This document shows, piece after piece, positions 15,215 through 60,747 of a stretch of DNA of 64,000 nt (positions within the stretch are counted from its first letter, which is position 1; each line of letters starts with the position of its first letter). Below the pieces are notes generated by a model. That model was not told the DNA's origin. It did not search any database and was given only the letters and a program-made list of their open reading frames with translations. The stretch is from Thermoanaerobaculia bacterium (GTDB lineage Bacteria > Acidobacteriota > Thermoanaerobaculia > UBA5066): contig JAJVIN010000002.1 of the NCBI GenBank assembly GCA_022071945.1, positions 104,941 through 168,940 on the forward strand, read 5' to 3'. Made by a program: the position numbers and the translations under genes.

Positions 15215-16999
15215 ATGAGTTCGAGAGGATTCAAGGAGCGCTTTTTCGAGGGCGTCCCGAGGTACGAGTGGGTGGACACCCTCGGCCGGGGCGGAATGGG
15301 GATCGTCTACAAGGCGAAGGACAAGGAGCTCGACGAGATCGTCGCGATCAAGGTGCTTCAACCTGATTTCGACGGGACGGAGCTCGATCTCCTGACCCGT
15401 TTCAAGCGCGAGATCAACCTCAACCGGAAGATCAAGCACCCGAACGTAGCCCGGATCCACGACTTCGGGATGAGCGGGGAGTTCCCGTACATCACGATGG
15501 AGTACATACAGGGCAAGGACCTCAAGGCGACGATCCAGGATCGGGGACGGATCCCGCCGCCCGACGCCATCTCGATCCTCAGACAGATCGCCCGCGGCGT
15601 TCAGGCCGCCCACGAAGTCGGCATCATCCACCGGGACCTGAAGCCCCAGAACGTCATGCTCGACGGGAACGGAGCGGTGGCGATCCTGGATTTTGGCCTG
15701 GCGCGCGGCCGGACGAACGACAACCTGACCGCCTCCTCGATCGTCCTCGGCACCCCTCAATACCTTTCTCCCGAGCAGGCCTTGGGTGGGCAGGCGGACG
15801 CGCGGAGTGACCTCTATTCCATCGGCATCATCGCGTTCGAGATGCTCACGGGGGATGTCCCCTTCATCGGGGACACGCCTGTCGCGACCGCGATGAAGCA
15901 GGTGACGGCCCCGGTCCCCGACACGATGTCCCGATTTCCGGACGTCTCTCCCGGTCTTCGGGCGATCGTTCTCCGGACGCTCGCGAAGCGCCCTTCGGAC
16001 CGCTTCAGCTCGGCGGCCGAGCTCGAGGCCGAGATCGCCATGCTCGAACACAAGGTTGAAGAGGACACGGAGAGCCGGATCCGGCGCGCGACGTTCGAGG
16101 TCGGGCCCCCTTCGAGCGCGGGCATGCCGATCCCGGAGCGCCCGGCGAGCAGCATCGAGACTCTCATGGCCCCGCCCGACGCGCAGGGTCTCCCGCCGTC
16201 CCGGACGGAAGGAGACACTCCGCGCGCGGCGATGCGCCGGCACGTCCGGCCGGGCGCGCCAGCCACCGCAGGCGCGCCAGCCACCGCGGGTGTGGCGGCC
16301 CCGGCTCCACAGGTCCCTCCTCCCCAGCCATCGCCACAGGCAGCCCAGCCTGATTTCTCGCTCGGTCCGCAGGTCTATCCCCTCCCATCGATTCCCCAGG
16401 CGATCCCGGCGGCCGCGCTGCCTCCGCTGCAGCAAAAACCGGCGGGTCCTCCAGTCATGACGTCGGCCTACTCGGCTCCCGCTCCCGCCTCGCCGCCCGT
16501 CCAGCCGGCGGCCCCAGGCCGTGAGCTGGACCGCACGGTCGTCAAGCGCCGCGTGCCAAAGGTGCTGGTCGTGGACGCGGATTCGCAGAACGTCCTGACC
16601 TCGGCATCCGTCCTGGAGTCCTCGGGCACGCAGGTCGTGATCGCTCGCAGCGGCCAGGAGGCCCTCGAGCTCCTGATGAAGACCTCGGTCGACCTGATTT
16701 TCCTGGACATCTCGCTGCCCGGGATGGACGGGCTGGACGTGACCCGGATCATCAAGTCGCAGCCGGAGCTTTCGGCCATTCCCATTCTCCTCACGTCCCA
16801 GCGGCTCGACCGGAGCTTGTTTGCCTTCGGCATCCAGCTCGGGGCTGTCGATTTCATCCGCAAGCCGATCCCCGAGAAGACCCTCATCGGTTATGCCTGG
16901 CAGGTCTTGAAGCGGATCGGCTTCGTCCCGCCCGCGGGCGTCGTCGAGGCAGAGATGCCAGCCAAGGCCGCTCCCAGGGGGCCGAAACCATCCTACTAA
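15215..16999 (+). CDS. Hanks-type Ser/Thr protein kinase fused to a C-terminal response-regulator receiver domain
   Basis: Kinase motifs GRGGMGIVYKA, HRDLKPQN, DFGLAR, SPEQ. A Pro/Ala-rich linker contains the GAPATAG duplication. Receiver reads KVLVVDADSQ...LIFLDISLPGMDG...FIRKP. Confidence 0.9.
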   Translation: MSSRGFKERFFEGVPRYEWVDTLGRGGMGIVYKAKDKELDEIVAIKVLQPDFDGTELDLLTRFKREINLNRKIKHPNVARIHDFGMSGEFPYITMEYIQGKDLKATIQDRGRIPPPDAISILRQIARGVQAAHEVGIIHRDLKPQNVMLDGNGAVAILDFGLARGRTNDNLTASSIVLGTPQYLSPEQALGGQADARSDLYSIGIIAFEMLTGDVPFIGDTPVATAMKQVTAPVPDTMSRFPDVSPGLRAIVLRTLAKRPSDRFSSAAELEAEIAMLEHKVEEDTESRIRRATFEVGPPSSAGMPIPERPASSIETLMAPPDAQGLPPSRTEGDTPRAAMRRHVRPGAPATAGAPATAGVAAPAPQVPPPQPSPQAAQPDFSLGPQVYPLPSIPQAIPAAALPPLQQKPAGPPVMTSAYSAPAPASPPVQPAAPGRELDRTVVKRRVPKVLVVDADSQNVLTSASVLESSGTQVVIARSGQEALELLMKTSVDLIFLDISLPGMDGLDVTRIIKSQPELSAIPILLTSQRLDRSLFAFGIQLGAVDFIRKPIPEKTLIGYAWQVLKRIGFVPPAGVVEAEMPAKAAPRGPKPSY

Positions 17000-17066: not shown

Positions 17067-17810
17067 ATGAAACCTAGAGTCGGTGGTCTTCTGGCCATCC
17101 TCGCCCTCACGTCCCTCGCCGCCTCGGCGGCTCCGGCCGATAAACCCGCCGCAAAGCCCGCCGCAAAGCCGGCGGACCCCAAGGCGCCCGGCGCCGCGCC
17201 CGCGCCGGCCGCGCCTCTCGACGAGGCCAAGACCATCTATGCGCTCGGTGTCGTCATCAGCGGAAACCTCAAGCAGTTCCGGTTGACCCCGGCGGAGGTC
17301 GAGATCCTCAAATCCGGCCTCACCGACGGCCTCGCGGGCAAGGAGAAGAAGGAAGAGGTCGAGAAGAACGGTCCCAGGATCCAGGAACTCCTCGAGAAGC
17401 GGCAATCCGCCGCCGCCGCGGAGGAGAAAAAGGCCTCGGGGAGCTACCTGGCGAAGATGGCTGCCGAGCCGGGCGCTCAGAAGAAAGCCAGCGGTCTCGT
17501 CTACAGAGAGCTGAAGGCCGGAGCGGGGGAGCAACCCAAGTCGAACTCGAAGGTGAAAGTCCACTACCACGGCACGCTTTCGGACGGCACGGTCTTCGAT
17601 AGCTCCGTTCAGCGAGGCCAGCCGGCCGAGTTCCCTCTGGACCGAGTCATCCCCTGCTGGACGGAGGGTGTTCAGCTGATGAAGGTGGGGGGTAAGGCCA
17701 AGATCACCTGCCCATCCGAAATTGCCTACGGCGACCGCGGGGCCCCGCCGACCATCAAGCCGGGCGCCACGCTCACGTTCGAGGTGGAGCTCCTGGAAAT
17801 CGCGAAGTAG
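17067..17810 (+). CDS. Secreted FKBP-type peptidyl-prolyl cis-trans isomerase (FkpA/Mip-like)
   Basis: Signal peptide. C-terminal FKBP domain VKVHYHGTLSDGTVFDSS...ATLTFEVELLEI. Confidence 0.9.
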   Translation: MKPRVGGLLAILALTSLAASAAPADKPAAKPAAKPADPKAPGAAPAPAAPLDEAKTIYALGVVISGNLKQFRLTPAEVEILKSGLTDGLAGKEKKEEVEKNGPRIQELLEKRQSAAAAEEKKASGSYLAKMAAEPGAQKKASGLVYRELKAGAGEQPKSNSKVKVHYHGTLSDGTVFDSSVQRGQPAEFPLDRVIPCWTEGVQLMKVGGKAKITCPSEIAYGDRGAPPTIKPGATLTFEVELLEIAK

Positions 17811-17852
17811 CCTCGCGCACCCGGAGGTGCTCCGGGTGGTCTCGAATCGAAG

Positions 17853-17881
17853 AGCCCGGCCGAGCGCCGGGCTTTTCTCTT
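17853..17881 (+). terminator. Rho-independent terminator after FKBP gene
   Basis: Stem AGCCCGGC / GCCGGGCT with a 5-nt loop, followed by TTTTCTCTT. An additional 9-bp hairpin lies at 17818-17838. Confidence 0.75.
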
Positions 17882-18108
17882 GAGATGCCTGGGGGAACGG
17901 GACACGGGCGGGCTCGAGCCGGATTCGCATCCTCTGCGACCTGATCTCAGAAAAGTGGTGCGTAGTACGTATGCATCATGCCGATTGATCCATTCCGCTC
18001 ATACCCGGCGGGGCCGAACGGGAGTAGCCTTTCCCATGAAGATTCCCCTGGACTGGGACCATGAAGGGCCTTGCCGCCGGGGGGACATGGGAGAGGAGGA
18101 ATAACAAC

Positions 18109-20142
18109 ATGGGTGTGCTGAAACGTGGCCTCCTGTTTCTGGCCTCGGCGGGAGTCCTGGCGTTTCCCTCGATCGTTCCAACCGACAAGGGGATTCCGCT
18201 GCCGGATACGGGAAAGAGCTCGGCGCCCGCCATCGCTGACGGGTCGAAGCTCTACACGCCGGATCAGGCGGAGTACTACCTGGACGCCGATGCGATCGCC
18301 TACATTCGGCCGGGCCTGAGGCTCGCCATTCTCGGAGTGACGGACTTCGCCCCGGGAAAGAAGCCGACCGTCGAGTTCACGATGACGGACGATTTCGGAA
18401 AGCCGCTCGACAGGCTGGGTGGCGAGACCCCGGGTCCCGTGACCGTCCGGTTCGTCCCCGCCACATGGGATCAGGACACGCGCTCCTACACCGACCTCCT
18501 CGTCGCGGCCTCCACCGGATTCCCGACCCGCGACACGGCCGGCACGTTCCAGACGGTCGAGCTCGGCCGCTACAAGTACACGTTCTCGCTCGCGCTGGCG
18601 AACTTCGACGTGAACAAGCCCGCCACGTTGATGATCGGCGGCCGCCGCACGATGACGGACATCATCGGCAAGGACTACTGGGCGAACAACACGTTCAAGG
18701 ACTTCGTCCCCGCGACGGGCGGAAGCGCGACGACCTGGAACGCGACGACCAACGCCAAGTGCAACAACTGCCACGACCCGCTCGCTCTGCACGGCGGCAA
18801 CTATCGCGACATCAAGACCTGCGAGATGTGCCACAACCCCAACAACATGAAGGGCGCGACCCTCGAGCCGTTCAACGGACAGAAGTTCTGGCACGCGATC
18901 CACTCCTCCAATGACCACGAGATCGGGCACGTCACCTACCCGCAGGATCTGCGCAACTGCGTGAACTGCCACGACTCCACGGCGGCGGGCAGCGACAGCT
19001 GGTACACCCGTCCGACGCGCGCCTCTTGCGGCGGCTGCCACGCGAGCGTCGACTTCGCGGGCGGCACGAACCACCCCGCGCAGCCCGATGACACCAAGTG
19101 CGCCAATTGCCACGCCCCCGAGGGGGATCGGGAGTTCGATGCCTCGATCAAGGGCGCGCACGTCATCCCAGAGAAGTCCAAGCAGCTCAAGGGCCTGAAG
19201 ATGACGATCGTCTCGGTCGCCAACGCCAAGGCGGGCCAGAAGCCGACGATGACGTTCAAGATCACCGACAACGCCGGCAAGGCGATCGACCCCAGCACGA
19301 TGTACGCGCCGGTCGGCTCTCTCGCCCCGATCATGGCCGGTCCCACGGGCGACTACGCCTGGTACAAGCGCGAAGCGGTTTCCGCGACGAACAAGCCGGC
19401 CTTCGACGCCGCGACGGGCAACGCGACCTACACCTTCACGAATGCGATCCCGGCCGACTTCAAGGGCACGCTGGCCTTCTCCGCCGATGCCTACCTGAAC
19501 TCGACGATCAAGCGCGGCGACGGCGAGCCCGACATGACCCTCCGCGAGGCCGCGACGAACCCGATGATGTATGTTGCCGTGACGGGCGACGTCGTCAACC
19601 GGCGAACCTCCGTCACGCTCGCGCAGTGCAACCGCTGCCACGACCGTCTCGCCCTCCACGGCGGCCAGCGCCTCGTCATCGAGGAGTGCGTGATCTGCCA
19701 CAACGCCAACGAGACCGACACGAGCCGCCGGCCGGCCGCCGATGGACCGCCCGAGTCCGTCCAGATGGCCCGCATGATCCACCGCATCCACACCGGCGAG
19801 GAGCTCACCCAGGACTACACGGTCTACGGCTTCTACACGCCGCCGAACCCGCCGAACCCGGTCAACTTCAACGAGATCCTGTATCCGGGAGACCGTCGCA
19901 ACTGCGTGGCCTGCCATACCTCCACCGGATACCAGCCGCCTCTCAATGGTCGCCTGAGCGTCAACACTCAGCGTGACTACTTTGCCCCGCAGGGTCCGTC
20001 CACGGTCGCGTGCCTCGGCTGCCACGACAATCGTGACTCCGCCTCTCACGCGTACCTGATGACGGCCCCCTTTGGCGAGTCCTGCGGCGCCTGCCACGGC
20101 GCGAATTCCGATTGGTCTCCGGCCAAGGTCCACGCCCGGTAA
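18109..20142 (+). CDS. mtrC: Decaheme c-type cytochrome, OmcA/MtrC-family architecture (5+5 hemes separated by non-heme domains)
   Basis: Ten CXXCH motifs: CNNCH, CEMCH, CVNCH, CGGCH, CANCH, then a ~190 aa heme-free segment, then CNRCH, CVICH, CVACH, CLGCH, CGACH. ATG 18109 is preceded by GGAGAGGAGG; signal peptide MGVLKRGLLFLASAGVLAFP. Lies upstream of mtrA/mtrB-like genes. Confidence 0.85.
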   Translation: MGVLKRGLLFLASAGVLAFPSIVPTDKGIPLPDTGKSSAPAIADGSKLYTPDQAEYYLDADAIAYIRPGLRLAILGVTDFAPGKKPTVEFTMTDDFGKPLDRLGGETPGPVTVRFVPATWDQDTRSYTDLLVAASTGFPTRDTAGTFQTVELGRYKYTFSLALANFDVNKPATLMIGGRRTMTDIIGKDYWANNTFKDFVPATGGSATTWNATTNAKCNNCHDPLALHGGNYRDIKTCEMCHNPNNMKGATLEPFNGQKFWHAIHSSNDHEIGHVTYPQDLRNCVNCHDSTAAGSDSWYTRPTRASCGGCHASVDFAGGTNHPAQPDDTKCANCHAPEGDREFDASIKGAHVIPEKSKQLKGLKMTIVSVANAKAGQKPTMTFKITDNAGKAIDPSTMYAPVGSLAPIMAGPTGDYAWYKREAVSATNKPAFDAATGNATYTFTNAIPADFKGTLAFSADAYLNSTIKRGDGEPDMTLREAATNPMMYVAVTGDVVNRRTSVTLAQCNRCHDRLALHGGQRLVIEECVICHNANETDTSRRPAADGPPESVQMARMIHRIHTGEELTQDYTVYGFYTPPNPPNPVNFNEILYPGDRRNCVACHTSTGYQPPLNGRLSVNTQRDYFAPQGPSTVACLGCHDNRDSASHAYLMTAPFGESCGACHGANSDWSPAKVHAR

Positions 20143-20239
20143 CGGTGTTTGTCCCGGTGGAGAGCCAGAACCCTGGCTCTCCACCTTTGTCCGCTCATCC
20201 GGGCGGAGAGACAGGAAACATCCGGCAAGAGAGGGGACT

Positions 20240-21136
20240 ATGAAGATTCGTCTGTGGCTGGCCGTCGGGGCTGCCTGGATCCTGCTCCCGGGGCTGCTTT
20301 TCGCGAACCCGCAGAACACGGGTTCGGCTGAGGCGAGCGGCCCGACGTGCGCCGACTGCCACGAGGAGCAGACCTCGAAGTTCGCGCTGAACCCGCATGC
20401 CCGCAAGGCGTGCGAGTCTCCTTCCGCGCGGGCCGAGATCTGCGCGACGTGCCACGGCGACGGAAAAGCGCACATGGAAGCGGGCGGCGACAAGAGCCTC
20501 ATCAAGACTCTGAGCGGACGCCAGGGTTCCGAGACCTGCGTCTCCTGTCACAAGGAGACGAAGGAACACTACTCCTACAGGCTCGGCGTTCATGCGTCCA
20601 CCGATGCCGTGAACTGCCTGACCTGTCATTCCATTCACAAGGCGGAGAAGAAGAGCAGCAAGCTCCTCGCGAAAAAGGAGCTCGATCTCTGCGCCTCCTG
20701 CCATTCCAACGTGGCGGCCAGCTTCAAGGACAAGCCGTACAAGCACCACCTCGGCCGCAACGTCATCGAGTGCAGCTCGTGCCACGAGCCCCACGGCCGC
20801 GCGGGCAAGGACATGATGAAGATCAACCGCGCGGACGAGTCTCCGTGCGTGAGCTGCCACACCGACAAGCGCGGGCCGCACGTCTTTCCGCACCTGGCCT
20901 CCGGGACGGGAACGTGCCAGAGCTGTCACGAACCCCACGGTTCGAACTATCCGCACCAGCTGACCCGGGCGTCCGTCGACAAGTTGTGCCTCGAGTGCCA
21001 TTCGCCGTTTGGCACGGGTTCCCTCGGTTCCCAGCCCGTCGCCACGCACAACCTCCTCCTCCCGAGGTGGCGGAATTGCACGACGTGCCACACCGCCATC
21101 CACGGTTCCAACCGTTCGCCGAAGCTGTTGAAGTAG
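20240..21136 (+). CDS. mtrA: Periplasmic decaheme c-type cytochrome, DmsE/MtrA family
   Basis: 298 aa with ten CXXCH motifs evenly spaced. Signal peptide MKIRLWLAVGAAWILLPGLLFA at ATG 20240. The upstream extension of the track ORF was rejected. Confidence 0.88.
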   Translation: MKIRLWLAVGAAWILLPGLLFANPQNTGSAEASGPTCADCHEEQTSKFALNPHARKACESPSARAEICATCHGDGKAHMEAGGDKSLIKTLSGRQGSETCVSCHKETKEHYSYRLGVHASTDAVNCLTCHSIHKAEKKSSKLLAKKELDLCASCHSNVAASFKDKPYKHHLGRNVIECSSCHEPHGRAGKDMMKINRADESPCVSCHTDKRGPHVFPHLASGTGTCQSCHEPHGSNYPHQLTRASVDKLCLECHSPFGTGSLGSQPVATHNLLLPRWRNCTTCHTAIHGSNRSPKLLK

Positions 21137-21146
21137 GAGCCGCGCC

Positions 21147-23096
21147 ATGAGAAGAACACGGCTTTCGCTCTCTCTCGCGTCCCTCCTCCTTGCTTCAGCG
21201 GTCCAGGCACAGGTCGTCACCGATGTCGAGGTCGGCTACCGCTTCGTCGACGTGAAGGGCAACGAGGACATGTACCGCACGCAGGTCGGCGAGCGGGAAG
21301 GCTTCCTCCTTCGCGGGCTGACCCTGCAGACCGCCGACTTCGGCGGCAAGCTCCAGTTCATCGATCAATTCCGGCTCGACGTCGCCGACATCGGCGCCGG
21401 CCCGGCCGGGATGATCCGCCTGGAGGCGGTCCGCGAGGGCACCTACAGGCTCCGCTTCAACTATCGCCACAGCGAGCACACGAGCTTCTTGCCCGAGTTC
21501 GCGAATCCGTTCCTCGGCCAGGGCATCATCCCCGGCCAGCACACATGGGAACGTGACCGCGATGTCTACGACGTCGAGGTCGAAATCCTCCCGGGCAAGG
21601 CCGTCACGCCCATCCTCGGCTACACGTATTCCCAGTACCGCGGACCCGGGGCGACCACCTATCACTTCTCCCAAGACGAGTTCCGCCTGACCGAAAAGCT
21701 GGACGACAAGGAACAAGAGTTCCGGGCCGGTCTCGCGTTCAACGCGGGACCCGTGAACGGGCACTTCATCCAGGGTTGGCGCAAGTACGACAGCAACACG
21801 GAGCTGACGCTTGCTCCCGGCGGCAACAACGGCAACAACAGCATCACCGTTCTCGACAAGGATGTCTCCGTCACGGACCTCACGCGGACGATGAGCTACG
21901 AGAGCACGGCTCCCGTCACCAATGCCGTCGTGAACTTCCGGCTGTTCGAATCCTGGCGGCTCGTCGGCCTTTACGTGAGGGCCAAGGACGATCTGGATTC
22001 CAACTTGAGCGAGGCGTCGGCGGGCAATCTCGTCTCCTTTGCCATCGACCGCTACGCGAAGGGCTGGAGGGAGTCCAGCAGCGCAAACGCCATCAACACC
22101 TACTGGCGGGGCGCCGGCCGTCTCGAGGGCAACATTCTCAATGTGGTCGACGTCTCCGCTGGCTTTGCCCGCAGGGAAAACACCCTGGAGGGAACGGCCC
22201 TCATCGATAGTCTCTTCTCGGGCACCACGACGTTCACCAACGTCGATCCCAAGGACATCCGCGTCATCATCGATGCCAAGACGGGCGTCGAGAAGACCGA
22301 GGACACCTGGGACGTGCAGGCATCGGCCCGCCACCTCGGTCCCGTCGGGATTCGCGTGGGGTATTCCCAGTCCAATCAGGATCTCAAGGTCTCCGAGGAC
22401 GTCTCCGAGATCGTGATCCCGGGAGGCCAGTCTGGCCAGTACGAGCGCAAGATCGACCGGTTCGACGCGGCGCTCAGCTTTGCCATGGCCGGGTTCTCGT
22501 TCACGGGAGCTTACAAGCACGAGTCGGCCGACGAGCCGGTCATGAGGACCGACTTTCTCGACAAGGACACCTTCTCCCTCAGGGCGAGCTACCGGTTCAA
22601 GGAGCTCCTGGACCTCTACGGCGTCTACCGGGACACCCAGATCGAGAACGACCGGACAGGCTACGCCTACGATGCTTCGATGCGGGATTGGCGCCTCGGC
22701 TTCTCGGTCTCTCCGATCAAGCAGCTGACCCTCGGTTTCAACTACGGACAGTCCGACGGCGACACCTCCATTCCCTACAAGGTTCCCTACACCTTCGACA
22801 ACCCGGATCCCACCAATCTCTCCTATCAGGAAGAGAGCGGCCGGTCGTGGGAAGCCTCTCTGACGGGGCATCTGAAGCCCGTCACGCTCGAGGCTGGCTA
22901 CGGCTGGTACGAGAACACCGGAACGTACGCGCTGAAGCTGCAGCGGGCTCGCATCATGGCCGACATCGACATCACGAAGTTGTTCGGCGTGGCCGGAGAG
23001 TGGTGCTGGGACAAGTACGAGGAGAAGTACGCTCAACCGGTCTACGGGAACTACGAGGCGAACCGCATCGGCGTCTTCCTCAGGATCCATCAATAG
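21147..23096 (+). CDS. mtrB: Outer-membrane beta-barrel porin, MtrB/PioB-like (decaheme-associated)
   Basis: 649 aa. Signal peptide MRRTRLSLSLASLLLASAVQAQ. Alternating beta-strand pattern rich in Y/G/D/N throughout. Starts 11 nt after the mtrA-like stop. Confidence 0.75.
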   Translation: MRRTRLSLSLASLLLASAVQAQVVTDVEVGYRFVDVKGNEDMYRTQVGEREGFLLRGLTLQTADFGGKLQFIDQFRLDVADIGAGPAGMIRLEAVREGTYRLRFNYRHSEHTSFLPEFANPFLGQGIIPGQHTWERDRDVYDVEVEILPGKAVTPILGYTYSQYRGPGATTYHFSQDEFRLTEKLDDKEQEFRAGLAFNAGPVNGHFIQGWRKYDSNTELTLAPGGNNGNNSITVLDKDVSVTDLTRTMSYESTAPVTNAVVNFRLFESWRLVGLYVRAKDDLDSNLSEASAGNLVSFAIDRYAKGWRESSSANAINTYWRGAGRLEGNILNVVDVSAGFARRENTLEGTALIDSLFSGTTTFTNVDPKDIRVIIDAKTGVEKTEDTWDVQASARHLGPVGIRVGYSQSNQDLKVSEDVSEIVIPGGQSGQYERKIDRFDAALSFAMAGFSFTGAYKHESADEPVMRTDFLDKDTFSLRASYRFKELLDLYGVYRDTQIENDRTGYAYDASMRDWRLGFSVSPIKQLTLGFNYGQSDGDTSIPYKVPYTFDNPDPTNLSYQEESGRSWEASLTGHLKPVTLEAGYGWYENTGTYALKLQRARIMADIDITKLFGVAGEWCWDKYEEKYAQPVYGNYEANRIGVFLRIHQ

Positions 23097-23135
23097 TTTG
23101 ACTTGGGCCCCCGAGGGCTCCAAACTTCCTCTTCG

Positions 23136-23171
23136 AACCCGGCGCGCCGCGCCGGGTTCTTCATCTCTTCC
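23136..23171 (+). terminator. Terminator hairpin after mtrB-like gene
   Basis: Near-perfect palindrome AACCCGGCGCG c CGCGCCGGGTT (23136-23158), followed by CTTCATCTCTTCC. Confidence 0.6.
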
Positions 23172-24945: not shown

Positions 24946-25524
24946 CTACTTCAGCCGGGTTTCGGCCACGTCCCAGTTGACGTTCTTCCAGAACGCGGCG
25001 ATGTAGTCGGCGCGCTTGAGGCCGTAGTCGAGCATGAAGGCGTGCTCGAAGACGTCCATGATGAGCACCGGATTGCAGCCCGCGAAGTGTCCCGCATCGT
25101 GCTCGTTGATCCAGGTGTTGAAGAACCGGCCGGAGGCGAGGTCCTGATAGAGAACGACCCAGCCGATTCCGCGCATCGCGCCCGTGGCCCGAAAGTCCTT
25201 CTCCCACGCCTCGACACTGCCGAACTGCGCCACCAGGGCCTTGGCGAGCGGGCCATCGGGGTTGAGGGGCTTGCTGCCTCCGAGGTTGTCGAAGTAGTAC
25301 TCGTGCAGCCGCATCCCGTTGAATTCCCAGCCGAAACGTCTCTTCAGCTCGGCGAACTCCGCGTCGCCCTGCTTGCCGTCGGCCAGAAGCGCCGCCATCT
25401 TGTCGATGAGCTTGTTCGAGTTCGTGACATAGCCCTGATAGAGCGTGAAGTGATTCTTCAGGAGAGTCTCGCTGAAGCCTTCCATTCCGATCAGATGCGA
25501 GTAGTCCTTTGCGGTGTACGCCAT
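24946..25524 (-). CDS. Fe/Mn-family superoxide dismutase
   Basis: ATG 25524 (MAYTAKDY) with AGGAGA upstream. Metal-ligand contexts NHFTLYQGY, LHEYYF, DVFEHAFMLDY. Confidence 0.85.
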   Translation of the reverse strand: MAYTAKDYSHLIGMEGFSETLLKNHFTLYQGYVTNSNKLIDKMAALLADGKQGDAEFAELKRRFGWEFNGMRLHEYYFDNLGGSKPLNPDGPLAKALVAQFGSVEAWEKDFRATGAMRGIGWVVLYQDLASGRFFNTWINEHDAGHFAGCNPVLIMDVFEHAFMLDYGLKRADYIAAFWKNVNWDVAETRLK

Positions 25525-25580
25525 AAGTCTCCTTTCGAGAAGCTTCCGATGCGGCTCCAGGCCGTTCCGCGGCTCCAAGC

Positions 25581-25617: not shown

Positions 25618-27996
25618 CTAGGCCAGCGACGCCCTGTTGGCGTCCTGCATTCTACGGAACAAGGCCAGGATTCCACCTGCCATCATGATGTAAAAGCCGG
25701 TCCAGACCAGAGAAATCAGGGGTTTCCGCGTGACATCGACCGAGAACGATTCGGGCGTGGCGGGCTTCAGATCAGACCCCGGGTTGAGCCCGAGAACCTC
25801 GATCTCGATCACTCCTTCGCTCGCCGCCGTCTTTCGAATTCTAAACCGTCCCTCGGTCCCCGGGATCGCGACGTCGTCGGCCTGCGTTCCCCCTGGTCCC
25901 GACGCGCCGATGAGGGTGACGAAGCGGGCCTCGAGCTCCGCGGGCCCCGCCCCCGCGCTCACCAGAAGTCGCGCGGTCACCGTGACTCGGGGAGTGGCGG
26001 ATTCGACCTGCGACTTGTCGGCGCTGAAGTCGATGAACTTGAAGGTGACCCCGTCAACCGTCTTGGCGATGCCCTTTTCGAGCTTCAGGACCGTTCCTTC
26101 CTGCCGCGCGGGCGATCCGGGATCGTAAGACTGGGGCGAGAGGTACAGGTCCATCAGCGGCGTCGAGCGGACATCGGGATTCGCCATCAACTGCTGCGTC
26201 CGCTCGTTCTGGTACATCTTCGGGTAGGCCTTCCAGACCTTGCCCGTTCCGGACTTGACCTCCACCTCCATCGCTTGCTTTGCCCTCCGGTCCGGCAGCA
26301 AGGCGGGATTCAGCTGATTGAACTGCTTGACTTCTCCGTCCTCGTTGACGAAGACCGTCCGGGTGAACGTCATCGTCGAGGTGCCGACCTGGATCGGCTG
26401 TCCCTTCGGGAGCGTGACCTGCGCCTTTTCCTCGTAGACACCCGAGATGAGGATGCCGGCGATCATGATCGACGTCCCGGCGTGCGAAAGGTACCCGCCC
26501 ATCGACCGGATCGCCCTGCGGCGAACGTAGAGGACGATCGCCTCGGCGGAGGCGGCGAGGCCCACGGCCGAAAGCCCGATGATGAGGAGGTCCATCGGCT
26601 TGCGGACGCCCGCCGCGAAGGCGAGCCCGAAGCCGCAGAGCCCGATCAGAAGAGAGAAGACCGACTTTTTCAGGAGCGATCCGGGTGCCTCTCCACGCCA
26701 GGTGATGAACGGAACGAGCGAGATCAGAAGCACCATGATGGCCGCCACCGGTGTGTGGGTGACGTTGTAGAAACTCGTGGCGACCTGTGACGCCTTGCCG
26801 AACATCCGGGTGAGGATCGGGGCCGACGTGCCCAGCAGGATGACGATTCCCGAGGCGCAGAAGAGCGTCACGGAAAGAATGAAGAGGACGGAGCGCGAGA
26901 GGAAAGGCTCCTCTTTTTCCTTGCCCGTCTCTGGATCGATCACCGGCTCCTTCGGGATCTCTCGCCAGCGGTAAGCCAGGAGACCGAGGCCGCCGAAGAA
27001 GAAGACTCCGATGATGGCGACGAGCCAGCCCGTGATGCCGAGGTCGACGAAGGAATGGACCGAGAAGTCGGCCAGGACCCCTGACCTCGTCAAGAAGGTA
27101 CCATAGAGGATGCAACAGAACGCGAGTATGGCCAGGATCAGGTTGATCTTCCTGTGCTTCTCGCGGTTCTTCTGCAGGAACATCCCGTGGACGAGGGCAA
27201 CCGTCGCGAGCCAGGGGACGAGAGATGTGTTCTCCACGGGGTCCCAGGCCCAGTAGCCGCCCCAGCCGAGCGTCTTGTAGGCCCAGTACCCTCCCATCAG
27301 GATCGCCGTCCCGAGCGTCACCATGCTGAAAAGAGCCCACGGCATCGCCCGGACGACCCAGCCATCCCACCGCTTGGACCACAGAGCCCCGATCGCGAAG
27401 GCAAACGGGACGGAGAGTGACGCGAATCCCGCGAACATCACCGGCGGGTGGATGACCATCCAGGGGTCCTGCAGGAGCGGATTCAGTCCTTGCCCGTCGG
27501 GCGGGACCTCGGCCAGAAACCGGAAGGGCGGCTGCTTTGCCAGGATCGCGACGATGCCGAGAAACGACAGGACGTAGATGATCATCACCTGCGGTTCCTG
27601 CTCGCGCGCGGTCTGGATCACGGCGAAGCCAATCAGGCCGCCGAAGAAGAGCCACAAGAGAAATGAGCCCTCCTGCCCAGCCCAGAACGTCGAGAAGAGA
27701 TAGTTGAGGGGCAGGTCGAGTCCCGAGTAAGAGGCGACGTAGGAGATCCGGAAGTCGTGAGAGAGAAGCACTCTCAGGAGGAGGGCGCTCGCCACGAAGA
27801 TCCCGCCGGCGAAGGCCAGGTAGAGGGATCGGGCGAAGCGGATCTGGTCGCCGTACTCGGCCGCTCGCCTCTCGGGGGCGGAGGCCGGGGCCAGCCGGAG
27901 CGCCCGGTAGTAGGCCAGGCACGTCGCGATTCCCGCCACGAGGGAGAACCAGATGGCAAGAGTTCCAGGGGCGAATCCAATCTGTTGCGGGTTCAT
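25618..27996 (-). CDS. ccmF: Cytochrome c-type biogenesis protein CcmF (heme lyase), long form
   Basis: 792 aa from ATG 27996 (MNPQQIGFAPGTLAIW). WAYKTLGWGGYWAWDPVEN tryptophan-rich motif. Many TM helices. The upstream 68 codons of the track ORF were rejected as Arg/Ser-rich junk. Confidence 0.9.
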   Translation of the reverse strand: MNPQQIGFAPGTLAIWFSLVAGIATCLAYYRALRLAPASAPERRAAEYGDQIRFARSLYLAFAGGIFVASALLLRVLLSHDFRISYVASYSGLDLPLNYLFSTFWAGQEGSFLLWLFFGGLIGFAVIQTAREQEPQVMIIYVLSFLGIVAILAKQPPFRFLAEVPPDGQGLNPLLQDPWMVIHPPVMFAGFASLSVPFAFAIGALWSKRWDGWVVRAMPWALFSMVTLGTAILMGGYWAYKTLGWGGYWAWDPVENTSLVPWLATVALVHGMFLQKNREKHRKINLILAILAFCCILYGTFLTRSGVLADFSVHSFVDLGITGWLVAIIGVFFFGGLGLLAYRWREIPKEPVIDPETGKEKEEPFLSRSVLFILSVTLFCASGIVILLGTSAPILTRMFGKASQVATSFYNVTHTPVAAIMVLLISLVPFITWRGEAPGSLLKKSVFSLLIGLCGFGLAFAAGVRKPMDLLIIGLSAVGLAASAEAIVLYVRRRAIRSMGGYLSHAGTSIMIAGILISGVYEEKAQVTLPKGQPIQVGTSTMTFTRTVFVNEDGEVKQFNQLNPALLPDRRAKQAMEVEVKSGTGKVWKAYPKMYQNERTQQLMANPDVRSTPLMDLYLSPQSYDPGSPARQEGTVLKLEKGIAKTVDGVTFKFIDFSADKSQVESATPRVTVTARLLVSAGAGPAELEARFVTLIGASGPGGTQADDVAIPGTEGRFRIRKTAASEGVIEIEVLGLNPGSDLKPATPESFSVDVTRKPLISLVWTGFYIMMAGGILALFRRMQDANRASLA

Positions 27997-28030
27997 CGGG
28001 CCTCGCTTTCTCGGGTGCGCAAAAGGCGGC

Positions 28031-28432
28031 TCAGAGCTTCTGGGGCCCGCCGTACTTCTTCTCGACCTCTTCGCCCTGGTACTTGGAGGGGCACTTGACG
28101 AGGAGCTTCTCGGCCACGAATTCCTTGCCGTGGTACTTCCCGATGGCCACGATCGAGACTGCTTCCTCGAAGTTCGCCGGCTTGATGTCCCGGTACGCAA
28201 CGGGCATGACCGCGCGGGTCTTCTCGTCGATCAGGTTGAAGTGGAGAGTCTTGGTGGACGTGTCGTAGCGGCTCGTGCCCTTTTCGAGCCCGCCCATCAC
28301 CTGAACCGTCCGCTGGGCCTCCCTGGCCTCGTCGAACGTGACGTAGGGAGTCATGGACTTCGTGAACGTGGAGAGCCCGAGCGCCAGGAACGCGATGATG
28401 ATGACGGCGCCGGCCCAGTAGGCTTTCTTCAT
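28031..28432 (-). CDS. ccmE: Heme chaperone CcmE, Cys-type (CxxxY) variant
   Basis: 133 aa with an N-terminal TM anchor and OB-fold-like body. The C-terminal motif LLVKCPSKY (Cys114...Tyr118 by my count) replaces the canonical HxxxY. Confidence 0.85.
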   Translation of the reverse strand: MKKAYWAGAVIIIAFLALGLSTFTKSMTPYVTFDEAREAQRTVQVMGGLEKGTSRYDTSTKTLHFNLIDEKTRAVMPVAYRDIKPANFEEAVSIVAIGKYHGKEFVAEKLLVKCPSKYQGEEVEKKYGGPQKL

Positions 28433-28590
28433 GGTTGGTCCCCCCGGGAAAGGTGTTTCAGGGCGGTCTTCAGCTTGCGTTCGAGGTAGAAGACATAGCC
28501 GAAGAGGCCCGCCCAGATGACGATGTTGACGGCTGCGACGTAGAGAAGGGCTCCGTACAGGGGCTGCGGAGCCGCGGGGATCTCGCTCAA
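28429..28590 (-). CDS. ccmD: Probable CcmD-like small membrane protein
   Basis: 53 codons from TTG overlapping the ccmC stop (TTGA at 28590-28587). Single TM YGALLYVAAVNIVIWAGLFGYVFYL followed by a basic tail. Its stop overlaps the ccmE start. Confidence 0.5.
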   Translation of the reverse strand: MSEIPAAPQPLYGALLYVAAVNIVIWAGLFGYVFYLERKLKTALKHLSRGDQP

Positions 28591-29273
28591 GAGGCCATCT
28601 CCTGCTGCCGGACCGCCTCGGCCTCCCGGAAGAGCCGGGCGACCTTGCGGTCCAGGGAGTAAATCCAGAAGAAAAACACGGTGAATGCCGCGAGAGAAGA
28701 GAAGAACACGAGCCTGATGTCGGGTGACATCTCCACCTTGCCGCGGGGGTTGATGACTGTGTCGGGGTGGAGGGAGGCGTACATTCGCGGCACCGCGAAC
28801 ATCAAGAAGGGCACCGTGACGAAGGCGATCAGGGCGTAGGCCGCCGAGAGGGTGGCCCGGCGCTCGGGATCCTCGATCGCCGCCCTGAGGCCGGTGTAGG
28901 CCCCGTAGACGAGGAGGAGGAGCACGATCGAGGTCTCTCGCGGGTCCCAGTTCCAGTACGAGTTCCACATCACCCGGGCGAAGATCGAGCCCGTGACGGT
29001 GGCGAGAAAGCAGAAGAGAAGCCCGAGCCTCGCCGCGGCCGCGGCCGCGTCATCGGATTCGGGCCGCCTGTTTCTCAGGTAGAGGCCCGAGTGGATCGCG
29101 GCGATCAAGAAAGCCAGGGTCGCGATCCAGGCCATCGGAACATGAAAGAAGACGATGCGGGAGGATTCGCCGACGAAGTTCTCCGCCGGACGGGCGTACA
29201 GAAACGCTGCCCAGAGGATGACCGACATCGAAACCCCGAGAATGACCCTGACGAGAAGGCCCAAGTTCCCCAT
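28587..29273 (-). CDS. ccmC: Heme exporter protein CcmC
   Basis: 228 aa. WNSYWNWDPRET matches the WGxxWxWDPR tryptophan-rich motif. Six TM-like segments. Confidence 0.9.
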   Translation of the reverse strand: MGNLGLLVRVILGVSMSVILWAAFLYARPAENFVGESSRIVFFHVPMAWIATLAFLIAAIHSGLYLRNRRPESDDAAAAAARLGLLFCFLATVTGSIFARVMWNSYWNWDPRETSIVLLLLVYGAYTGLRAAIEDPERRATLSAAYALIAFVTVPFLMFAVPRMYASLHPDTVINPRGKVEMSPDIRLVFFSSLAAFTVFFFWIYSLDRKVARLFREAEAVRQQEMAS

Positions 29274-29316
29274 CCCGGCCCAATGATAAGGCTTCGGCGG
29301 GCCAGGGAGTGTGACG

Positions 29317-30009
29317 CTACTCGCGAAAAACGGCGTCGAAAAGGAAGAACGAGGCTGTCGTCATCACGCCGTCGTATGCAATCAACAGCTTGATCACATC
29401 GATGCCGGCCAGAAACTCGGATTCCGTCGCGGAAAGCCGTGTGCCCGCCACGGAGGCGACCAGGGGAGGCAGGAGAAGGGGAGTCGCCAGGACCGCGAAG
29501 AGAGCCCCCTTGGCGGTCGCCTTCGCGACGATGGCGGCCGTGAACGTGCTCGCCGAAGCCAGCCCGAGAGCTCCGAGAACGAGGACGCACAGAAAGAGGC
29601 CGGGGTTTTCCAGGTGGAACGACATCATCCCGATGTAGAGCGGCACGATCATGGCCAAGACGAGGAAAAGGAGCACCGTGTTGGCCAGGAGCTTGCCGAA
29701 AAACACCGCTTCGGCGGAGGCTGTCAGTCTGAGGGCGGGAGCCGTCCCGCTCTCCTCTTCCTTCACGAAGATCCGGGCCAGCCCCGTCATCGCGGAAAAG
29801 AAGATCACGATCCACAGAAGAACGGAATGAACGACGGGCCGGTCTTCGGGGGCGATTGCGGCGGGGCCGACGGCGTATCCCACCAAGACCAGGACCGCGA
29901 ACGCGAACAGAAGAAGCGTGCTCGTCGCCACGCGAGTCCTCCACTCCGTGCGGAGATCCTTGGACAGGATCGCGATCGACGTCGCCAGAAAGCCTGGACG
30001 GCCGCTCAT
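29317..30009 (-). CDS. ccmB: Heme exporter permease CcmB
   Basis: 230 aa polytopic membrane protein. Start overlaps the ccmA stop (ATGA). Position within the ccm operon. Confidence 0.85.
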   Translation of the reverse strand: MSGRPGFLATSIAILSKDLRTEWRTRVATSTLLLFAFAVLVLVGYAVGPAAIAPEDRPVVHSVLLWIVIFFSAMTGLARIFVKEEESGTAPALRLTASAEAVFFGKLLANTVLLFLVLAMIVPLYIGMMSFHLENPGLFLCVLVLGALGLASASTFTAAIVAKATAKGALFAVLATPLLLPPLVASVAGTRLSATESEFLAGIDVIKLLIAYDGVMTTASFFLFDAVFRE

Positions 30010-30632
30010 AGCGAGATCACCTCGTCCGCGAGCGCGAGGTCCCGCGTGTCATTGGAGGCGATCACGACCGCCCCGCCGCGCCTTTGCCGGGAAACGAACT
30101 TGGCCACGATCGCTCTCCCGGCCTCGTCGAGATTCGAGCTGGGTTCGTCGAGAAGGAGAAGAGGGGGCTCCGCCAGGACGCCGAAGATGAGCTTCAATCG
30201 TTGCCTCTGGCCAGTCGAGAGGAAGCGGGTCTCGATTTCTCTGAGGCGCTTCGGGTCCAGGCCGGCATCCTCGATCAGGTCCTCGATCGCCCCGGTCGAG
30301 AGTCTCAGTCCCTTCAGGCGGCCGAAGAACGCGAGGTTCTCGGCCGGGGTCAGCTCGCCGTAGAGCGCCAGGTCGGGAGCAGTCCAGCCGATCGAACCTG
30401 GAGTCTCCCGAGGGGGGAGCATGGGCGAGCCGGCGTCGCGGGATGACGCCACCGCGACGGTCCCCGAGGACGTGCGGAGGAGCCCGGCGAGCATCTTGAG
30501 GAGAGTCGTCTTGCCGGCGCCGTTTCTTCCCGCGATCCCCGTGACGCGGTTGTGGCCGACGGAAAACGAGAGCGGGCCCAGGATCTTTCGCGAGCCGAAG
30601 GCGCGGGCGACGCGATCACACGTCAGGATCAT
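30006..30632 (-). CDS. ccmA: Heme exporter ATP-binding protein CcmA
   Basis: From ATG 30632 (MILTCDRV). Walker A GRNGAGKTT, signature LSTGQRQRL, Walker B LLLLDEP. The longer track ORF start (30806) was rejected. Confidence 0.88.
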   Translation of the reverse strand: MILTCDRVARAFGSRKILGPLSFSVGHNRVTGIAGRNGAGKTTLLKMLAGLLRTSSGTVAVASSRDAGSPMLPPRETPGSIGWTAPDLALYGELTPAENLAFFGRLKGLRLSTGAIEDLIEDAGLDPKRLREIETRFLSTGQRQRLKLIFGVLAEPPLLLLDEPSSNLDEAGRAIVAKFVSRQRRGGAVVIASNDTRDLALADEVISL

Positions 30633-30650
30633 GCGGGCGGAGGATACAGG

Positions 30651-31358
30651 GTGGAAAATCCTCCCGTGGGCAAAACGCTCCTCGGCTTCCTTCTTTTTCT
30701 CGTCATCTCGCTCTGGCGGATCTCCCTTCGACTGCGCGTTCACGGAGACGAGAACCGCGAGCCGGCGATCCGGGCTGGGCGTCCCATTCTCCACCTTCTC
30801 TGGCATCAGCGGCTCGTTCTCGGAATCCTCGCCTACCCGTTCCGGGGTGCAGTCACCATGGCCTCGCGGAGCAAGGACGGCGACATCATCGCTGCTTTTC
30901 TGAAGTTCTGGGGATTCCGGGTGGCCCGGGGTTCGTCGTCGCGAGGAGGCCGGGAAGCCCTCTCGGAGATGATCGAGCTCGTGGCGGGGACGGCGAGCTG
31001 GTGTGCGTTGACGACGGACGGTCCGCGCGGGCCGGCCCGGAAGAGCAAACCTGGCTTTCTGACTCTCGCGCGTGCCACCAACGCCCTCATGGTTCCGGTC
31101 GGCTCATCGGCTGTCCGCGGCCGGTTCTTGAATTCCTGGGACAGGTTCTTCGTTCCGTTGCCCTTTTCCCGCTGCGTCCTCGTCCACGGTCCCGCGCTTG
31201 CGCAGAATCCGGGAGAACCCGACGAGGAGTTCCTGAACCGGGTCGATGCCGCCATCGATGCCGCCACCGCCGAGGCGGACCGCCTGTGTGGCGTCACCGG
31301 AGCCCCGCGCGAACGGGCGCCTCGGGCCGGCTCCGCGTCTTTGGAGGTCAGATCGTGA
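30651..31358 (+). CDS. DUF374-type lysophospholipid acyltransferase family protein
   Basis: GTG 30651 follows GGAGGA. LWHQRL..., SRSKDGDIIA, VARGSSSRGG, TTDGPRGP motifs are characteristic of DUF374. Divergent from ccmA. Confidence 0.7.
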   Translation: MENPPVGKTLLGFLLFLVISLWRISLRLRVHGDENREPAIRAGRPILHLLWHQRLVLGILAYPFRGAVTMASRSKDGDIIAAFLKFWGFRVARGSSSRGGREALSEMIELVAGTASWCALTTDGPRGPARKSKPGFLTLARATNALMVPVGSSAVRGRFLNSWDRFFVPLPFSRCVLVHGPALAQNPGEPDEEFLNRVDAAIDAATAEADRLCGVTGAPRERAPRAGSASLEVRS

Positions 31359-48395: not shown

Positions 48396-49811
48396 TCAGT
48401 CGATCGCGAGCGGCAAGACCAGCCGGAACGTGCTCCCCTTGCCGGGAGCGCTCTCGAACGTGACGCGGCCTCCGTGGGCCTCGGCCGTCCACTTGACGAG
48501 AGCCAATCCGAGACCAGATCCCGGGACGTCTCGAGAACGGCTCGGGTCGATCCGATAGAAGCGTTCGAAGATCCTGGATTGATGTTCCGTGGCGATCCCA
48601 GGGCCTTCGTCGGAAACCGACAGGTGGGTCCACGGGCCTTCCTTCGCTGTTCGGACCGTGATGGTGGAACCTGCCGGGGAGTACTTGATGGCGTTGTCGA
48701 GGAGGTTCATCACCGCGCGGCGCAGGGCCCGCAGGTCCCCTCGGACCCAGGCGGCTTCCTCGAGAAAGGTCTCGACCTCTTGCCCCCGATCCTCCGCGAG
48801 GACCGAGAGGTTCTCCGCGACCTCGCCGGCGATTGATGCGAGGTCGACTCTCTCCCTGGCGAGCTGGGCCTGACCCGACTCGGCCCGGGCGAGGGCGAGG
48901 AGATCGTCGGACACCCTGGCGAGCCGGTCGACTTCCTCGAGCATGGTCTCGACCGTCTCCTTGTAGTCCTGAGCGGTCTTCCCGTTTCTGAGCCCAACCT
49001 CACCGACGGTCTTCAGTGTGGTCAGAGGAGTTCGCAGCTCGTGTGAGGCGTCCGCCGTGAAGCGGCGCAGGTGCTCGAACGAGGATTCCAGCCGGGCGAG
49101 GGTCCCGTTGAAGGCGTCGCGAACCTGATCGACCTCGGCGCTGGAGTCTGGGATGTCGAGACGTTCTCTCAGCCATTCAGGACCGATCCCGCGTGCCAGT
49201 CCCGCGAGACGGGACAGCGGGCCCAGAAAAAGGCCGGTGACGAACCACCCACCCAGGGCGCCCGCCGACAGCACCACGAGCGAAAGGACTGCGAGTTCGA
49301 TCCAGAGTTCTCGGATCTGCTGCCTCACACCAGCTTCCGACACGGCCGCGCGGACCAGGAAACGCTCGCTGCCAACCTGGAGGGACTCGGACATCACGCG
49401 GACGGGGCCCGAGGGGAGATGGACGGTCTCGGGAGTTCCGTGGCGAGGATGTGGCCGCCCCGTCAACGGGGCGGCCATGGTGCCCGCGGAGAGGAGGGGT
49501 GTCTCGCGATCGCCGAAGACCTCCACGTAGTGGCCGCCCCCTTCTTCCTCGGCGATCTGCTTGCCGAGGAACCCCCCGGCCCAGGCGGGCTCGCCCGCTT
49601 CATCGAGCACGAGGGCCCGGCTCGCCAGTTCGATGTCTTCGTGAACTCTTCGGTCCAGGTCGGCATTCGCGTGCGAGGAGAAAGAGAACCCCACCGCAAC
49701 CGAGTAGGCCACCAGACAGGACCCGAGGAGCGCCACGTACCAGACAGTGATCCTCGTTCGGAGGCTCCGCCGGCGATGGAGGGGCGGAGGACCCTTCGCG
49801 AAACCGGTCAT
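48396..49811 (-). CDS. Sensor histidine kinase, heavy-metal (CusS/CopS/CzcS-like) subfamily
   Basis: 471 aa. N-terminal SLRTRITVWYVALL, two TM segments flanking a periplasmic loop, HAMP, H-box ADASHELRTPLTTL, and G boxes DEGPGI, GSGLGLALVK. Confidence 0.85.
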   Translation of the reverse strand: MTGFAKGPPPLHRRRSLRTRITVWYVALLGSCLVAYSVAVGFSFSSHANADLDRRVHEDIELASRALVLDEAGEPAWAGGFLGKQIAEEEGGGHYVEVFGDRETPLLSAGTMAAPLTGRPHPRHGTPETVHLPSGPVRVMSESLQVGSERFLVRAAVSEAGVRQQIRELWIELAVLSLVVLSAGALGGWFVTGLFLGPLSRLAGLARGIGPEWLRERLDIPDSSAEVDQVRDAFNGTLARLESSFEHLRRFTADASHELRTPLTTLKTVGEVGLRNGKTAQDYKETVETMLEEVDRLARVSDDLLALARAESGQAQLARERVDLASIAGEVAENLSVLAEDRGQEVETFLEEAAWVRGDLRALRRAVMNLLDNAIKYSPAGSTITVRTAKEGPWTHLSVSDEGPGIATEHQSRIFERFYRIDPSRSRDVPGSGLGLALVKWTAEAHGGRVTFESAPGKGSTFRLVLPLAID

Positions 49812-50524
49812 TCGTCCGTGTCGCGTGCGGTGAATCCGATCCCGCGGATGGTGTGAATGAGGCGGGTGGAGTGACCCTGGTCGACCTTGCGGCGGATGCG
49901 TCCGATGTGGACGTCGATGACGTTGTCGAGGGGCGTGCTGCGCTCCGTCTCTTTCCAGACGTCGCGGGCGATCATTTCGCGTGAGACCAGAGAGCCCCGA
50001 TGGCGGACGAGGTATTCGAGGAGAGCGAACTCACGGGAGGTCAGCTCGATTGGCGTGCCACCTCGCGAGACGGAGCGGCTCGGGATGTCGAGCACGAGAT
50101 CGGCGAGCGTGAGCCGCGTGAGCTGGTCGCCACGGCCCCGGCGCAGCAGAGCGCGCACGCGGGCGAGCAACTCGGGAAAGGCGAAGGGCTTCACGAGGTA
50201 GTCGTCAGCCCCCGCATCCAGCCCCGCGACACGGTCCTCTACGGCATCGCGGGCCGTGAGGACGAGAACGGGAGCCAGGACGCTCTTCTGACGGAGGGCT
50301 CTGAGGATCTCGAGACCGTCCCTTCCCGGGAGCATCCAGTCCAGGATGATGGCGTCAAAGAGACCGGTCGAGGCCTCGAAGAAGCCCGCCTCGCCGCTCA
50401 TGGCCACCGTCACCGCGTACCCCTCGGCCTCGAAGCCTGCCTGCAGGGCGCGGGCCACGCGTCCCTCGTCCTCGACGACGAGCAGGGACGGGGCGTCAAG
50501 ACCGGTCATTGGTTTCACGTGCAA
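49808..50524 (-). CDS. OmpR/PhoB-family response regulator, heavy-metal (CusR-like) subfamily
   Basis: LLVVEDEGRVARAL, AIILDWMLPGRDG, VLTARDAVEDRVAGLDAGADDYLVKPFAFPELLARV, and a winged-helix C-terminus. Stop overlaps the kinase start. Alternative start at 50509. Confidence 0.88.
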   Translation of the reverse strand: MHVKPMTGLDAPSLLVVEDEGRVARALQAGFEAEGYAVTVAMSGEAGFFEASTGLFDAIILDWMLPGRDGLEILRALRQKSVLAPVLVLTARDAVEDRVAGLDAGADDYLVKPFAFPELLARVRALLRRGRGDQLTRLTLADLVLDIPSRSVSRGGTPIELTSREFALLEYLVRHRGSLVSREMIARDVWKETERSTPLDNVIDVHIGRIRRKVDQGHSTRLIHTIRGIGFTARDTDE

Positions 50525-52464: not shown

Positions 52465-52510
52465 GCGCACTCTCCTTCTCCTTTCCTTGACCGTTGGTGG
52501 TCCGGGTGTT

Positions 52511-57034: not shown

Positions 57035-57059
57035 CTCTACAGACTCTCCTCTCTTCGTC

Positions 57060-58598: not shown

Positions 58599-58604
58599 CG
58601 TCGG

Positions 58605-60737: not shown

Positions 60738-60747
60738 GTCTGCCCCC

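Follow-up and report, generated by a model that had tools for sequence, protein, structure and literature searches.

We analysed a stretch of 64,000 nucleotides (nt) of contig JAJVIN010000002.1 (positions 104,941 to 168,940 of the forward strand; below, the window) from a Thermoanaerobaculia bacterium of the phylum Acidobacteriota, and focus here on three consecutive plus-strand genes that resemble mtrC, mtrA and mtrB of Mtr-type porin-cytochrome conduits (Table 1). Listing and translation of the open reading frames (ORFs) reproduce exactly the products of 677, 298 and 649 amino acids that an earlier reading of the DNA letters (the sequence-only reading) had placed here, with gaps of 97 nt (C-A) and 10 nt (A-B) between the genes. 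A Shine-Dalgarno-like motif can be read directly before each start: GGAGG 8-9 nt ahead of the ATG at 18109, GAGAGGGG before 20240 and TAGGAG before 21147. The triad is a clustered mtrC + mtrA + mtrB set as defined by Baker et al (2022; PMC8805035). Just four ORFs of the window contain at least two CxxCH motifs, the remaining two lying in a second cluster on the minus strand, and the adjacency of two decaheme genes is therefore not a matter of chance. The G+C content of the cluster (0.63-0.66) equals that of the window, and the G+C content at third codon positions of the three genes (GC3, 0.82-0.90) is like that of other window genes. Given these GC3 values, the minus-strand ORFs that overlie the triad (e.g. 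17947-20505 and 21195-23123) were rejected as mirror ORFs of high-GC DNA.

The product of the leading gene matches the NCBIfam model TIGR03507 (OmcA/MtrC) with 366.7 bits at a cutoff of 209.3, covering profile positions 7-672 of 672, and the Pfam model PF22113 (MtrC/MtrF domain II/IV) in two stretches with 139.1 bits at a cutoff of 30. The MtrC/OmcA-type layout of 5+5 hemes described in the sequence-only reading was recovered: ten CxxCH motifs start at residues 218, 238, 284, 307 and 331 and at residues 507, 527, 599, 635 and 659, with heme-free stretches separating the groups. In an alignment of 42 homologues, ten further histidines outside the motifs (H228, 262, 265, 322, 351, 517, 558, 561, 647 and 675; nine invariant, one nearly so) are candidates for the distal ligands, and their number matches that needed for bis-His ligation. 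The closest solved relatives by sequence are MtrF (3pmq, E 2.9e-32) and MtrC of Shewanella baltica. An AlphaFold2 (AF2) model computed with the 42 homologues (predicted local distance difference test, pLDDT, 78.9; hemes are absent from the model) has four domains in the order beta (residues ~70-200), heme (~205-350), beta (~360-490) and heme (~500-677). All 16 significant Foldseek matches of this model in the PDB are MtrC, OmcA, UndA or MtrF structures (E 1.6e-28 to 1e-21, template modelling (TM) score ~0.6), which agrees with the MtrC fold.

By its sequence, the 298-residue product can be assigned as an MtrA homologue, that is, as a decaheme cytochrome of the MtrA/DmsE type. Its ten CxxCH motifs are spread evenly along the chain, and residues 60-297 match 6r2q_A, the MtrA chain of the Mtr complex, with an E value of 1.9e-29. 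A near-identical protein is named "DmsE family decaheme" in JGI and "hypothetical protein" in NCBI.

The third product carries a signal peptide ending in AVQAQ and is predicted by modelling to be a 26-stranded, MtrB-like outer-membrane barrel whose sequence has diverged too far for standard family models to recognise it. Its AF2 model, based on a 46-sequence alignment, reaches a pLDDT of 80.9 and a predicted TM score (pTM) of 0.75, and DSSP assigns 26 strands to it, the same number as in the MtrB chain of 6R2Q. That chain (6r2q_B) is also the top Foldseek match of the model (E 1.8e-12, TM 0.65/0.65); the next matches are 22-stranded TonB-dependent receptors with TM scores of at most 0.48. The barrel family comprises 1,195 cluster representatives at E <= 1e-3 out of 1.84 billion, 271 of them at E <= 1e-30.

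Transcription of the triad was assessed with contigs assembled from metatranscriptomic runs, the depth of which is contig depth and thus a crude measure. In run X24, one contig covers mtrC and most of mtrA (18053-21041, depth 38) and a second one covers mtrB (21263-23028, depth 14.5), and in run X23 a single contig (18922-21467) spans both gene junctions. The depth over the flanking genes is at most 10, falling between 17403 and 18004 on the upstream side, and the contigs over the barrel gene end at 23028 and 23062 with lower depth beyond. The three genes thus appear to be one transcription unit in bioreactor communities. The terminators that the sequence-only reading had seen on both flanks were found again as hairpins by reading and folding (17849-17877, -23.2 kcal/mol; 23135-23159, -23.0 kcal/mol), and neither of them was listed by a simple terminator consensus scanner. 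The upstream stem runs into its own T-run and is likely the terminator that parts the gene of an FKBP-type isomerase from the mtr-like unit; the downstream hairpin, with a T-poor tail, likely marks the end of the unit. A scan for the sigma-70 consensus gave no promoter match for the unit.

A third hairpin lies between mtrC and mtrA. Among related loci, a hairpin of -24 kcal/mol or lower follows the stop codon of the mtrC-like gene in 48 of 58 cases, compared with 0 and 3 of 58 in two coding controls, and it is kept as a structure while its sequence differs from locus to locus. Because the RNA contigs read through it, the hairpin in the window is not a full terminator; it may act as a partial terminator, as a stabiliser of the mtrC message or as a tuner of the MtrC:MtrAB ratio.

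Table 1. Features of the mtr-like locus and of the second porin-cytochrome cluster (window coordinates).
Feature	Position	Strand	Description
Upstream hairpin with U-run	17849-17884	+	stem 17849-17877, then UUUUCUCUU; fold -23.2 kcal/mol, z -3.7
5' untranslated leader (probable)	18053-18108	+	RNA contigs of three runs start at 18053, 18066 and 18067
mtrC-like gene	18109-20142	+	677 amino acids; OmcA/MtrC-family decaheme cytochrome with signal peptide
mtrC-mtrA intercistronic hairpin	20156-20185	+	13 bp, GC-rich, 14 nt past the mtrC stop, followed by UUUG; -28.1 kcal/mol, z -6.9
mtrA-like gene	20240-21136	+	298 amino acids; DmsE/MtrA-type decaheme, 10 CxxCH; periplasmic, barrel-inserted role proposed
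mtrB-like gene	21147-23096	+	649 amino acids; outer-membrane beta-barrel, 0 CxxCH
Downstream hairpin	23135-23159	+	11 bp, GC-rich, 39 nt past the barrel stop; -23.0 kcal/mol, z -5.8; U-poor tail
Cluster 2 cytochrome	50620-52464	-	~614 amino acids; 7 CxxCH and one CxxxCH; weak cytochrome c552/NrfA-like matches; in the place of MtrC
Cluster 2 MtrA-like decaheme	52511-53398	-	295 amino acids; DmsE model 160.8 bits, under cutoff
Cluster 2 barrel	53386-55371	-	~640-660 amino acids, likely start ATG 55311; distant relative of the cluster 1 barrel family (hhalign probability 97.8%, E 6.7e-13, full length)

The relatives of the triad were collected with one genome per GTDB species. This yielded 67 related loci with identities of at most 56%, nearly all of them from metagenome-assembled genomes (MAGs) of Thermoanaerobaculia or other Acidobacteriota and a few labelled Bryobacter, Nitrospirae or other. 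The order C, A, B with a barrel of the same family is found in 55 of the 67 loci, most others being truncated contigs, and the median A-B gap is ~21 nt; the genes that flank the triad are not conserved. NCBI lists the identical MtrC-like protein under a Thermoanaerobaculia bacterium MAG, in line with the suspicion of the sequence-only reading that the genomic context is not gammaproteobacterial, and one contig of assembly GCA_023151375.1 carries the locus. DNA runs containing it are sludge, activated-sludge, bioreactor and wastewater metagenomes. In the NCBI records the mtrC gene is named, the mtrA homologue is a "hypothetical protein" and the barrel is unnamed; public annotation names just the mtrC gene because the barrel is too divergent for the standard models.

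Taken together, we consider it probable (about 0.78) that the triad is the operon of an MtrCAB-type porin-cytochrome conduit of an uncultured sludge and bioreactor Thermoanaerobaculia bacterium. In such a conduit, the MtrA-like decaheme would be exported to the periplasm and threaded through the 26-stranded MtrB-like barrel, so that a chain of hemes would cross the outer membrane. The MtrC-like decaheme, in which beta-barrel and pentaheme domains, two of each, alternate, would dock on the outer face and deliver electrons to acceptors that are large or insoluble, for instance oxides of Fe(III) or Mn(IV), humic substances, electrodes or partner cells. The electrons would come from the quinol pool by way of a quinol dehydrogenase in the inner membrane and carriers in the periplasm; the genes beside the cluster encode neither. 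We infer the assembly of the complex, the surface exposure of the MtrC-like protein, the outward flow of electrons and the physiological acceptor, the outward direction because an MtrC-type protein is present and because Thermoanaerobaculum aquaticum, a cultured member of the class, reduces Fe(III) and Mn(IV) (PMC8787282, PMC9671151). One MtrC and two MtrA have been reported for a MAG of T. aquaticum (PMC9671151), the same count as in the window.

A number of observations weigh against the conduit, the first of them concerning the family models. The MtrA-like protein scores 190.4 bits with TIGR03508 (DmsE), 1.8 bits short of the cutoff of 192.2, over profile positions 4-257 of 258. The barrel gives no match to the MtrB/PioB models of NCBIfam and Pfam (PF11854), and no PDB sequence is matched by it, either with phmmer or as a 46-sequence profile. 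Of the claim that the third gene encodes an MtrB-type barrel, the structural part stands, with 26 strands and MtrB as the best structure, and the match to hidden Markov models (HMMs) does not. The sequence-only reading would have dropped the assignment if the HMM failed and the barrel was also too small to enclose MtrA; only the HMM failed, the strand count being that of MtrB. Sub-threshold matches to PF11854 occur in eight of the 46 aligned family members (best E 9e-4); further ones are those of the barrel of the closest relative, locus L001, with 15 bits, and of one of ten divergent representatives (P0362), with 18.5 bits, the cutoff being 23. A Pfam scan of the Bryobacter and "delta proteobacterium" barrels likewise gave MtrB_PioB below threshold at best. 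The barrel family does align with the barrel of a Bryobacter C-A-barrel cluster (hhalign probability 99.6%), and because a PSI-BLAST search starting with Aeromonas MtrB had led to barrels of Bryobacterales (Baker et al, 2022; PMC8805035), the window barrel has an indirect sequence bridge to MtrB.

Other points on the same side concern the anchoring of the MtrC-like protein, the supply of electrons and the nature of the data. A lipobox, or any cysteine within the N-terminal 60 residues, was looked for in the 42 aligned MtrC-like proteins and found in none. MtrC and OmcA of the Shewanella clade have a conserved cysteine pair, forming a disulfide, in domain III. This pair is absent from the window protein, which has no cysteine beyond its CxxCH motifs, and from the 41 aligned homologues, in which extra cysteines are missing or isolated and non-conserved. 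Without lipobox and disulfide, the retention of the protein at the surface and its regulation by flavins must differ from the Shewanella case, or the protein might be released. Family scans of the main ORFs of the window revealed neither a quinol dehydrogenase of the CymA/NapC type nor type II secretion genes. Furthermore, the AF2 models are free of hemes and do not represent a complex, and the RNA contigs may include carry-over of DNA.

Alternatively, the same conduit might serve for uptake, as MtoAB and PioAB do, with Fe(II) outside the cell, reduced humics, cathodes or a syntrophic partner supplying electrons to the periplasm; we regard this inward direction as improbable though worth keeping in mind. 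The MtoAB and PioAB systems of iron oxidisers are homologues of Mtr-type conduits, clusters with MtrC are found in Betaproteobacteria, iron oxidisers included (Baker et al, 2022; PMC8805035), the host is found in sludge, both aerated and anoxic, and in bioreactors, and the direction of electron flow is not fixed by sequence alone. MtoAB and PioAB are, however, listed as A+B pairs alone in the methods of that survey, whereas 55 of the 67 loci here retain MtrC. In addition, the sole cultured class member cited is a reducer of Fe(III) and Mn(IV) (PMC8787282, PMC9671151), and neither Cyc2 nor another marker of iron oxidation was seen in the window.

The absence of a lipid anchor in the MtrC-like protein and the failure of the barrel with the MtrB/PioB models, its one Pfam match being a partial one to the general Porin_4 family (33.6 bits), would also suit a reading without any single trans-membrane complex, in which an ordinary large porin or transporter is merely co-encoded with periplasmic or secreted decahemes acting as carriers or reductases. 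We consider this very unlikely because of the strand count, the conserved adjacency of the genes and the presence of a second pair of MtrA-like decaheme and barrel in the window. The barrel has 26 strands and MtrB is by far its nearest structure; the A-B spacing is tight, in the window as well as elsewhere; the triad is conserved while its flanking genes vary; and the second barrel, which belongs to the same family, again adjoins an MtrA-like decaheme.

Finally, we find it least credible that the cluster was recently imported by horizontal transfer from a proteobacterium with an Mtr system. Transfer of Mtr clusters between lineages is known (Baker et al, 2022; PMC8805035) and the genes flanking the triad differ among relatives, but the best matches are all from Acidobacteriota, identity to the Shewanella structures is 16-20% (C) and 11% (B), the G+C content of the cluster equals the window mean, and the family scans noted no transposase, integrase or tRNA beside the cluster. 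The conserved order in relatives, the varying flanks and the matching G+C content together suggest a long residence in the class. Of the two origins proposed in the sequence-only reading, horizontal acquisition or an under-described lineage, these sequence comparisons thus favour an under-annotated lineage and do not indicate recent transfer.

The MtrCAB-type conduit proposed here is best compared with that of Shewanella (6R2Q of S. baltica; MtrC 4LM8/6QYC, MtrF 3PMQ, OmcA 4LMH), with which it has in common the order C-A-B, a four-domain MtrC with 5+5 hemes, a decaheme MtrA and a 26-stranded barrel of ~650 residues. The two differ in that the window proteins show an identity of only ~16-20% (C) and ~11% (B) in structural alignments, that the barrel escapes the MtrB/PioB HMMs, that the MtrC-like protein has neither the lipobox nor the domain-III cysteines and that the MtrA-like protein is ~35 residues shorter than the 333-residue chain of 6R2Q. 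Moreover, the window has no cymA, omcA, mtrDEF or type II secretion genes nearby, and its clade has the conserved mtrC-mtrA hairpin.

Baker et al (2022; PMC8805035) described clustered mtrCAB in three phyla and placed five clusters from Acidobacteriia/Bryobacterales, of the same phylum as the window, in their "Group 5"; Thermoanaerobaculia are absent from the text and tables of that paper. Like the window, Group 5 has the C-A-B triad and no inner-membrane quinol oxidoreductase beside the cluster, its MtrB partner is annotated as "hypothetical protein" and the MtrC of its Bryobacteraceae example Spst337 also has 677 residues (PMC8805035). The window belongs to a different class, its identity to the Bryobacter loci amounts to 38% (C), 33% (A) and 22-24% (B), and downstream of mtrB, where Group 5 encodes a periplasmic tetraheme cytochrome (PMC8805035), it has a gene of the PRK/uridine-kinase family instead. 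Mtr genes of Acidobacteriota, T. aquaticum among them, also appear in later metagenome papers (PMC9671151).

Two more distant systems share parts of this architecture. MtoAB and PioAB likewise comprise a homologous decaheme and a large barrel encoded side by side, but they are inward-directed A+B pairs without an MtrC-type surface decaheme (PMC8805035), whereas the window operon is led by an MtrC-type gene. The porin-cytochrome complexes of Geobacter (GSU2203/GSU2204-type) follow the same logic of barrel, periplasmic multiheme and outer multiheme cytochrome. The Geobacter barrels are predicted to be smaller; with the model of the GSU2203 decaheme, the MtrA-like protein of the window reaches 137.5 bits, far under the cutoff of 325, and the outer cytochrome of the window is no Omc-type lipoprotein but a protein of the MtrC fold.

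No other exit route of respiratory electrons from Gram-negative cells is understood as well as the Mtr-type conduits, whose genes serve as markers of electroactive biofilms and of the cycling of iron and manganese. Surveys by marker genes can miss parts of the system; one HMM-based survey reported for an acidobacterial group an mtrC homologue but no mtrAB (PMC8787282). The presence of the triad in more than 50 species of Thermoanaerobaculia and other Acidobacteriota, and its transcription in bioreactors, provide a basis for re-annotating genomes, and an improved model of MtrB could be started from the ~1,200 cluster representatives of this barrel family. The triad is an under-annotated example of the known Mtr system with clade-specific departures, not a system of a new kind, and its differences from Shewanella in anchoring and regulation are testable. 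A further-reaching view, which we hold to be possible but rather doubtful, is that it represents a distinct, old Mtr branch, in which the surface decaheme, whether held or released, has neither a lipid anchor nor a flavin-gating disulfide, the barrel lies beyond the MtrB/PioB models and the hairpin sets the MtrC:MtrAB ratio. If true, this class, which is common in soils, sediments and sludge, would as a whole form a guild of extracellular electron-transferring bacteria, overlooked because NCBI names just mtrC and because one HMM survey reported the mtrC homologue alone, and the mechanism of MtrC anchoring or export could be new.

The second porin-cytochrome cluster of the window (50620-55371, minus strand) differs from the first in its gene order (Table 1). 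In two related loci (L038 and L039), the mtrCAB-like cluster has homologues of the second cluster directly upstream. In the window, the second cluster is immediately preceded on the same strand by a run of nuo genes (NuoG-, H-, J-, K-, L-, M- and N-like; 55568-63987, minus strand), an unusual setting, in which a respiratory complex I operon leads into a porin-cytochrome cluster. Genes for an OmpR-type response regulator and a histidine kinase (48396-50524, minus strand) follow the cluster.

Around ~1/3 of the related triads, a pair of genes was found that encode a protein of ~620-660 residues with 11 CxxCH motifs and one of ~495 residues with 5-6 (e.g. L005:5617-9092, L013:5603-9011, L041:5455-8904 and L055:5583-8941). 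The pair, which is absent from the window, often lies divergently upstream and sometimes downstream of the triad. Two Nitrospirae MAGs (L061:9060-12046 and L062:2886-5895) encode an MtrC-like protein with 32% identity that is preceded by a protein of ~260 residues with nine CxxCH motifs and followed neither by an MtrA-like gene nor by a barrel of the same family.

Directly upstream of mtrC, the window encodes a periplasmic-type isomerase with FKBP_N and FKBP_C domains (FkpA-like; 17067-17810, plus strand), which is common only to the closest relative (L001) and probably lies outside the module. Downstream of the triad are a gene for an Fe/Mn superoxide dismutase (24946-25578) and, 2.5 kb from the cluster, genes of System I cytochrome c maturation (25618-30806, minus strand), comprising a CcmF-like protein of 860 residues, a CcmC-like protein, CcmB and an ABC ATPase that is likely CcmA; this setting counts in favour of the proposed conduit. 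The FKBP gene, the PRK-like gene, the kinase, the superoxide dismutase, CcmF and NuoN were considered as parts of the module and rejected, as none is syntenic with the triad in the relatives. The kinase and TPR context noted in the sequence-only reading was seen as well: five genes for Hanks-type Ser/Thr kinases lie in the 64 kb (15215-16999, 32976-35810, 37368-39950, 39972-42926 and 45641-48160), several of them fused to TPR domains and one carrying a response-regulator receiver domain.

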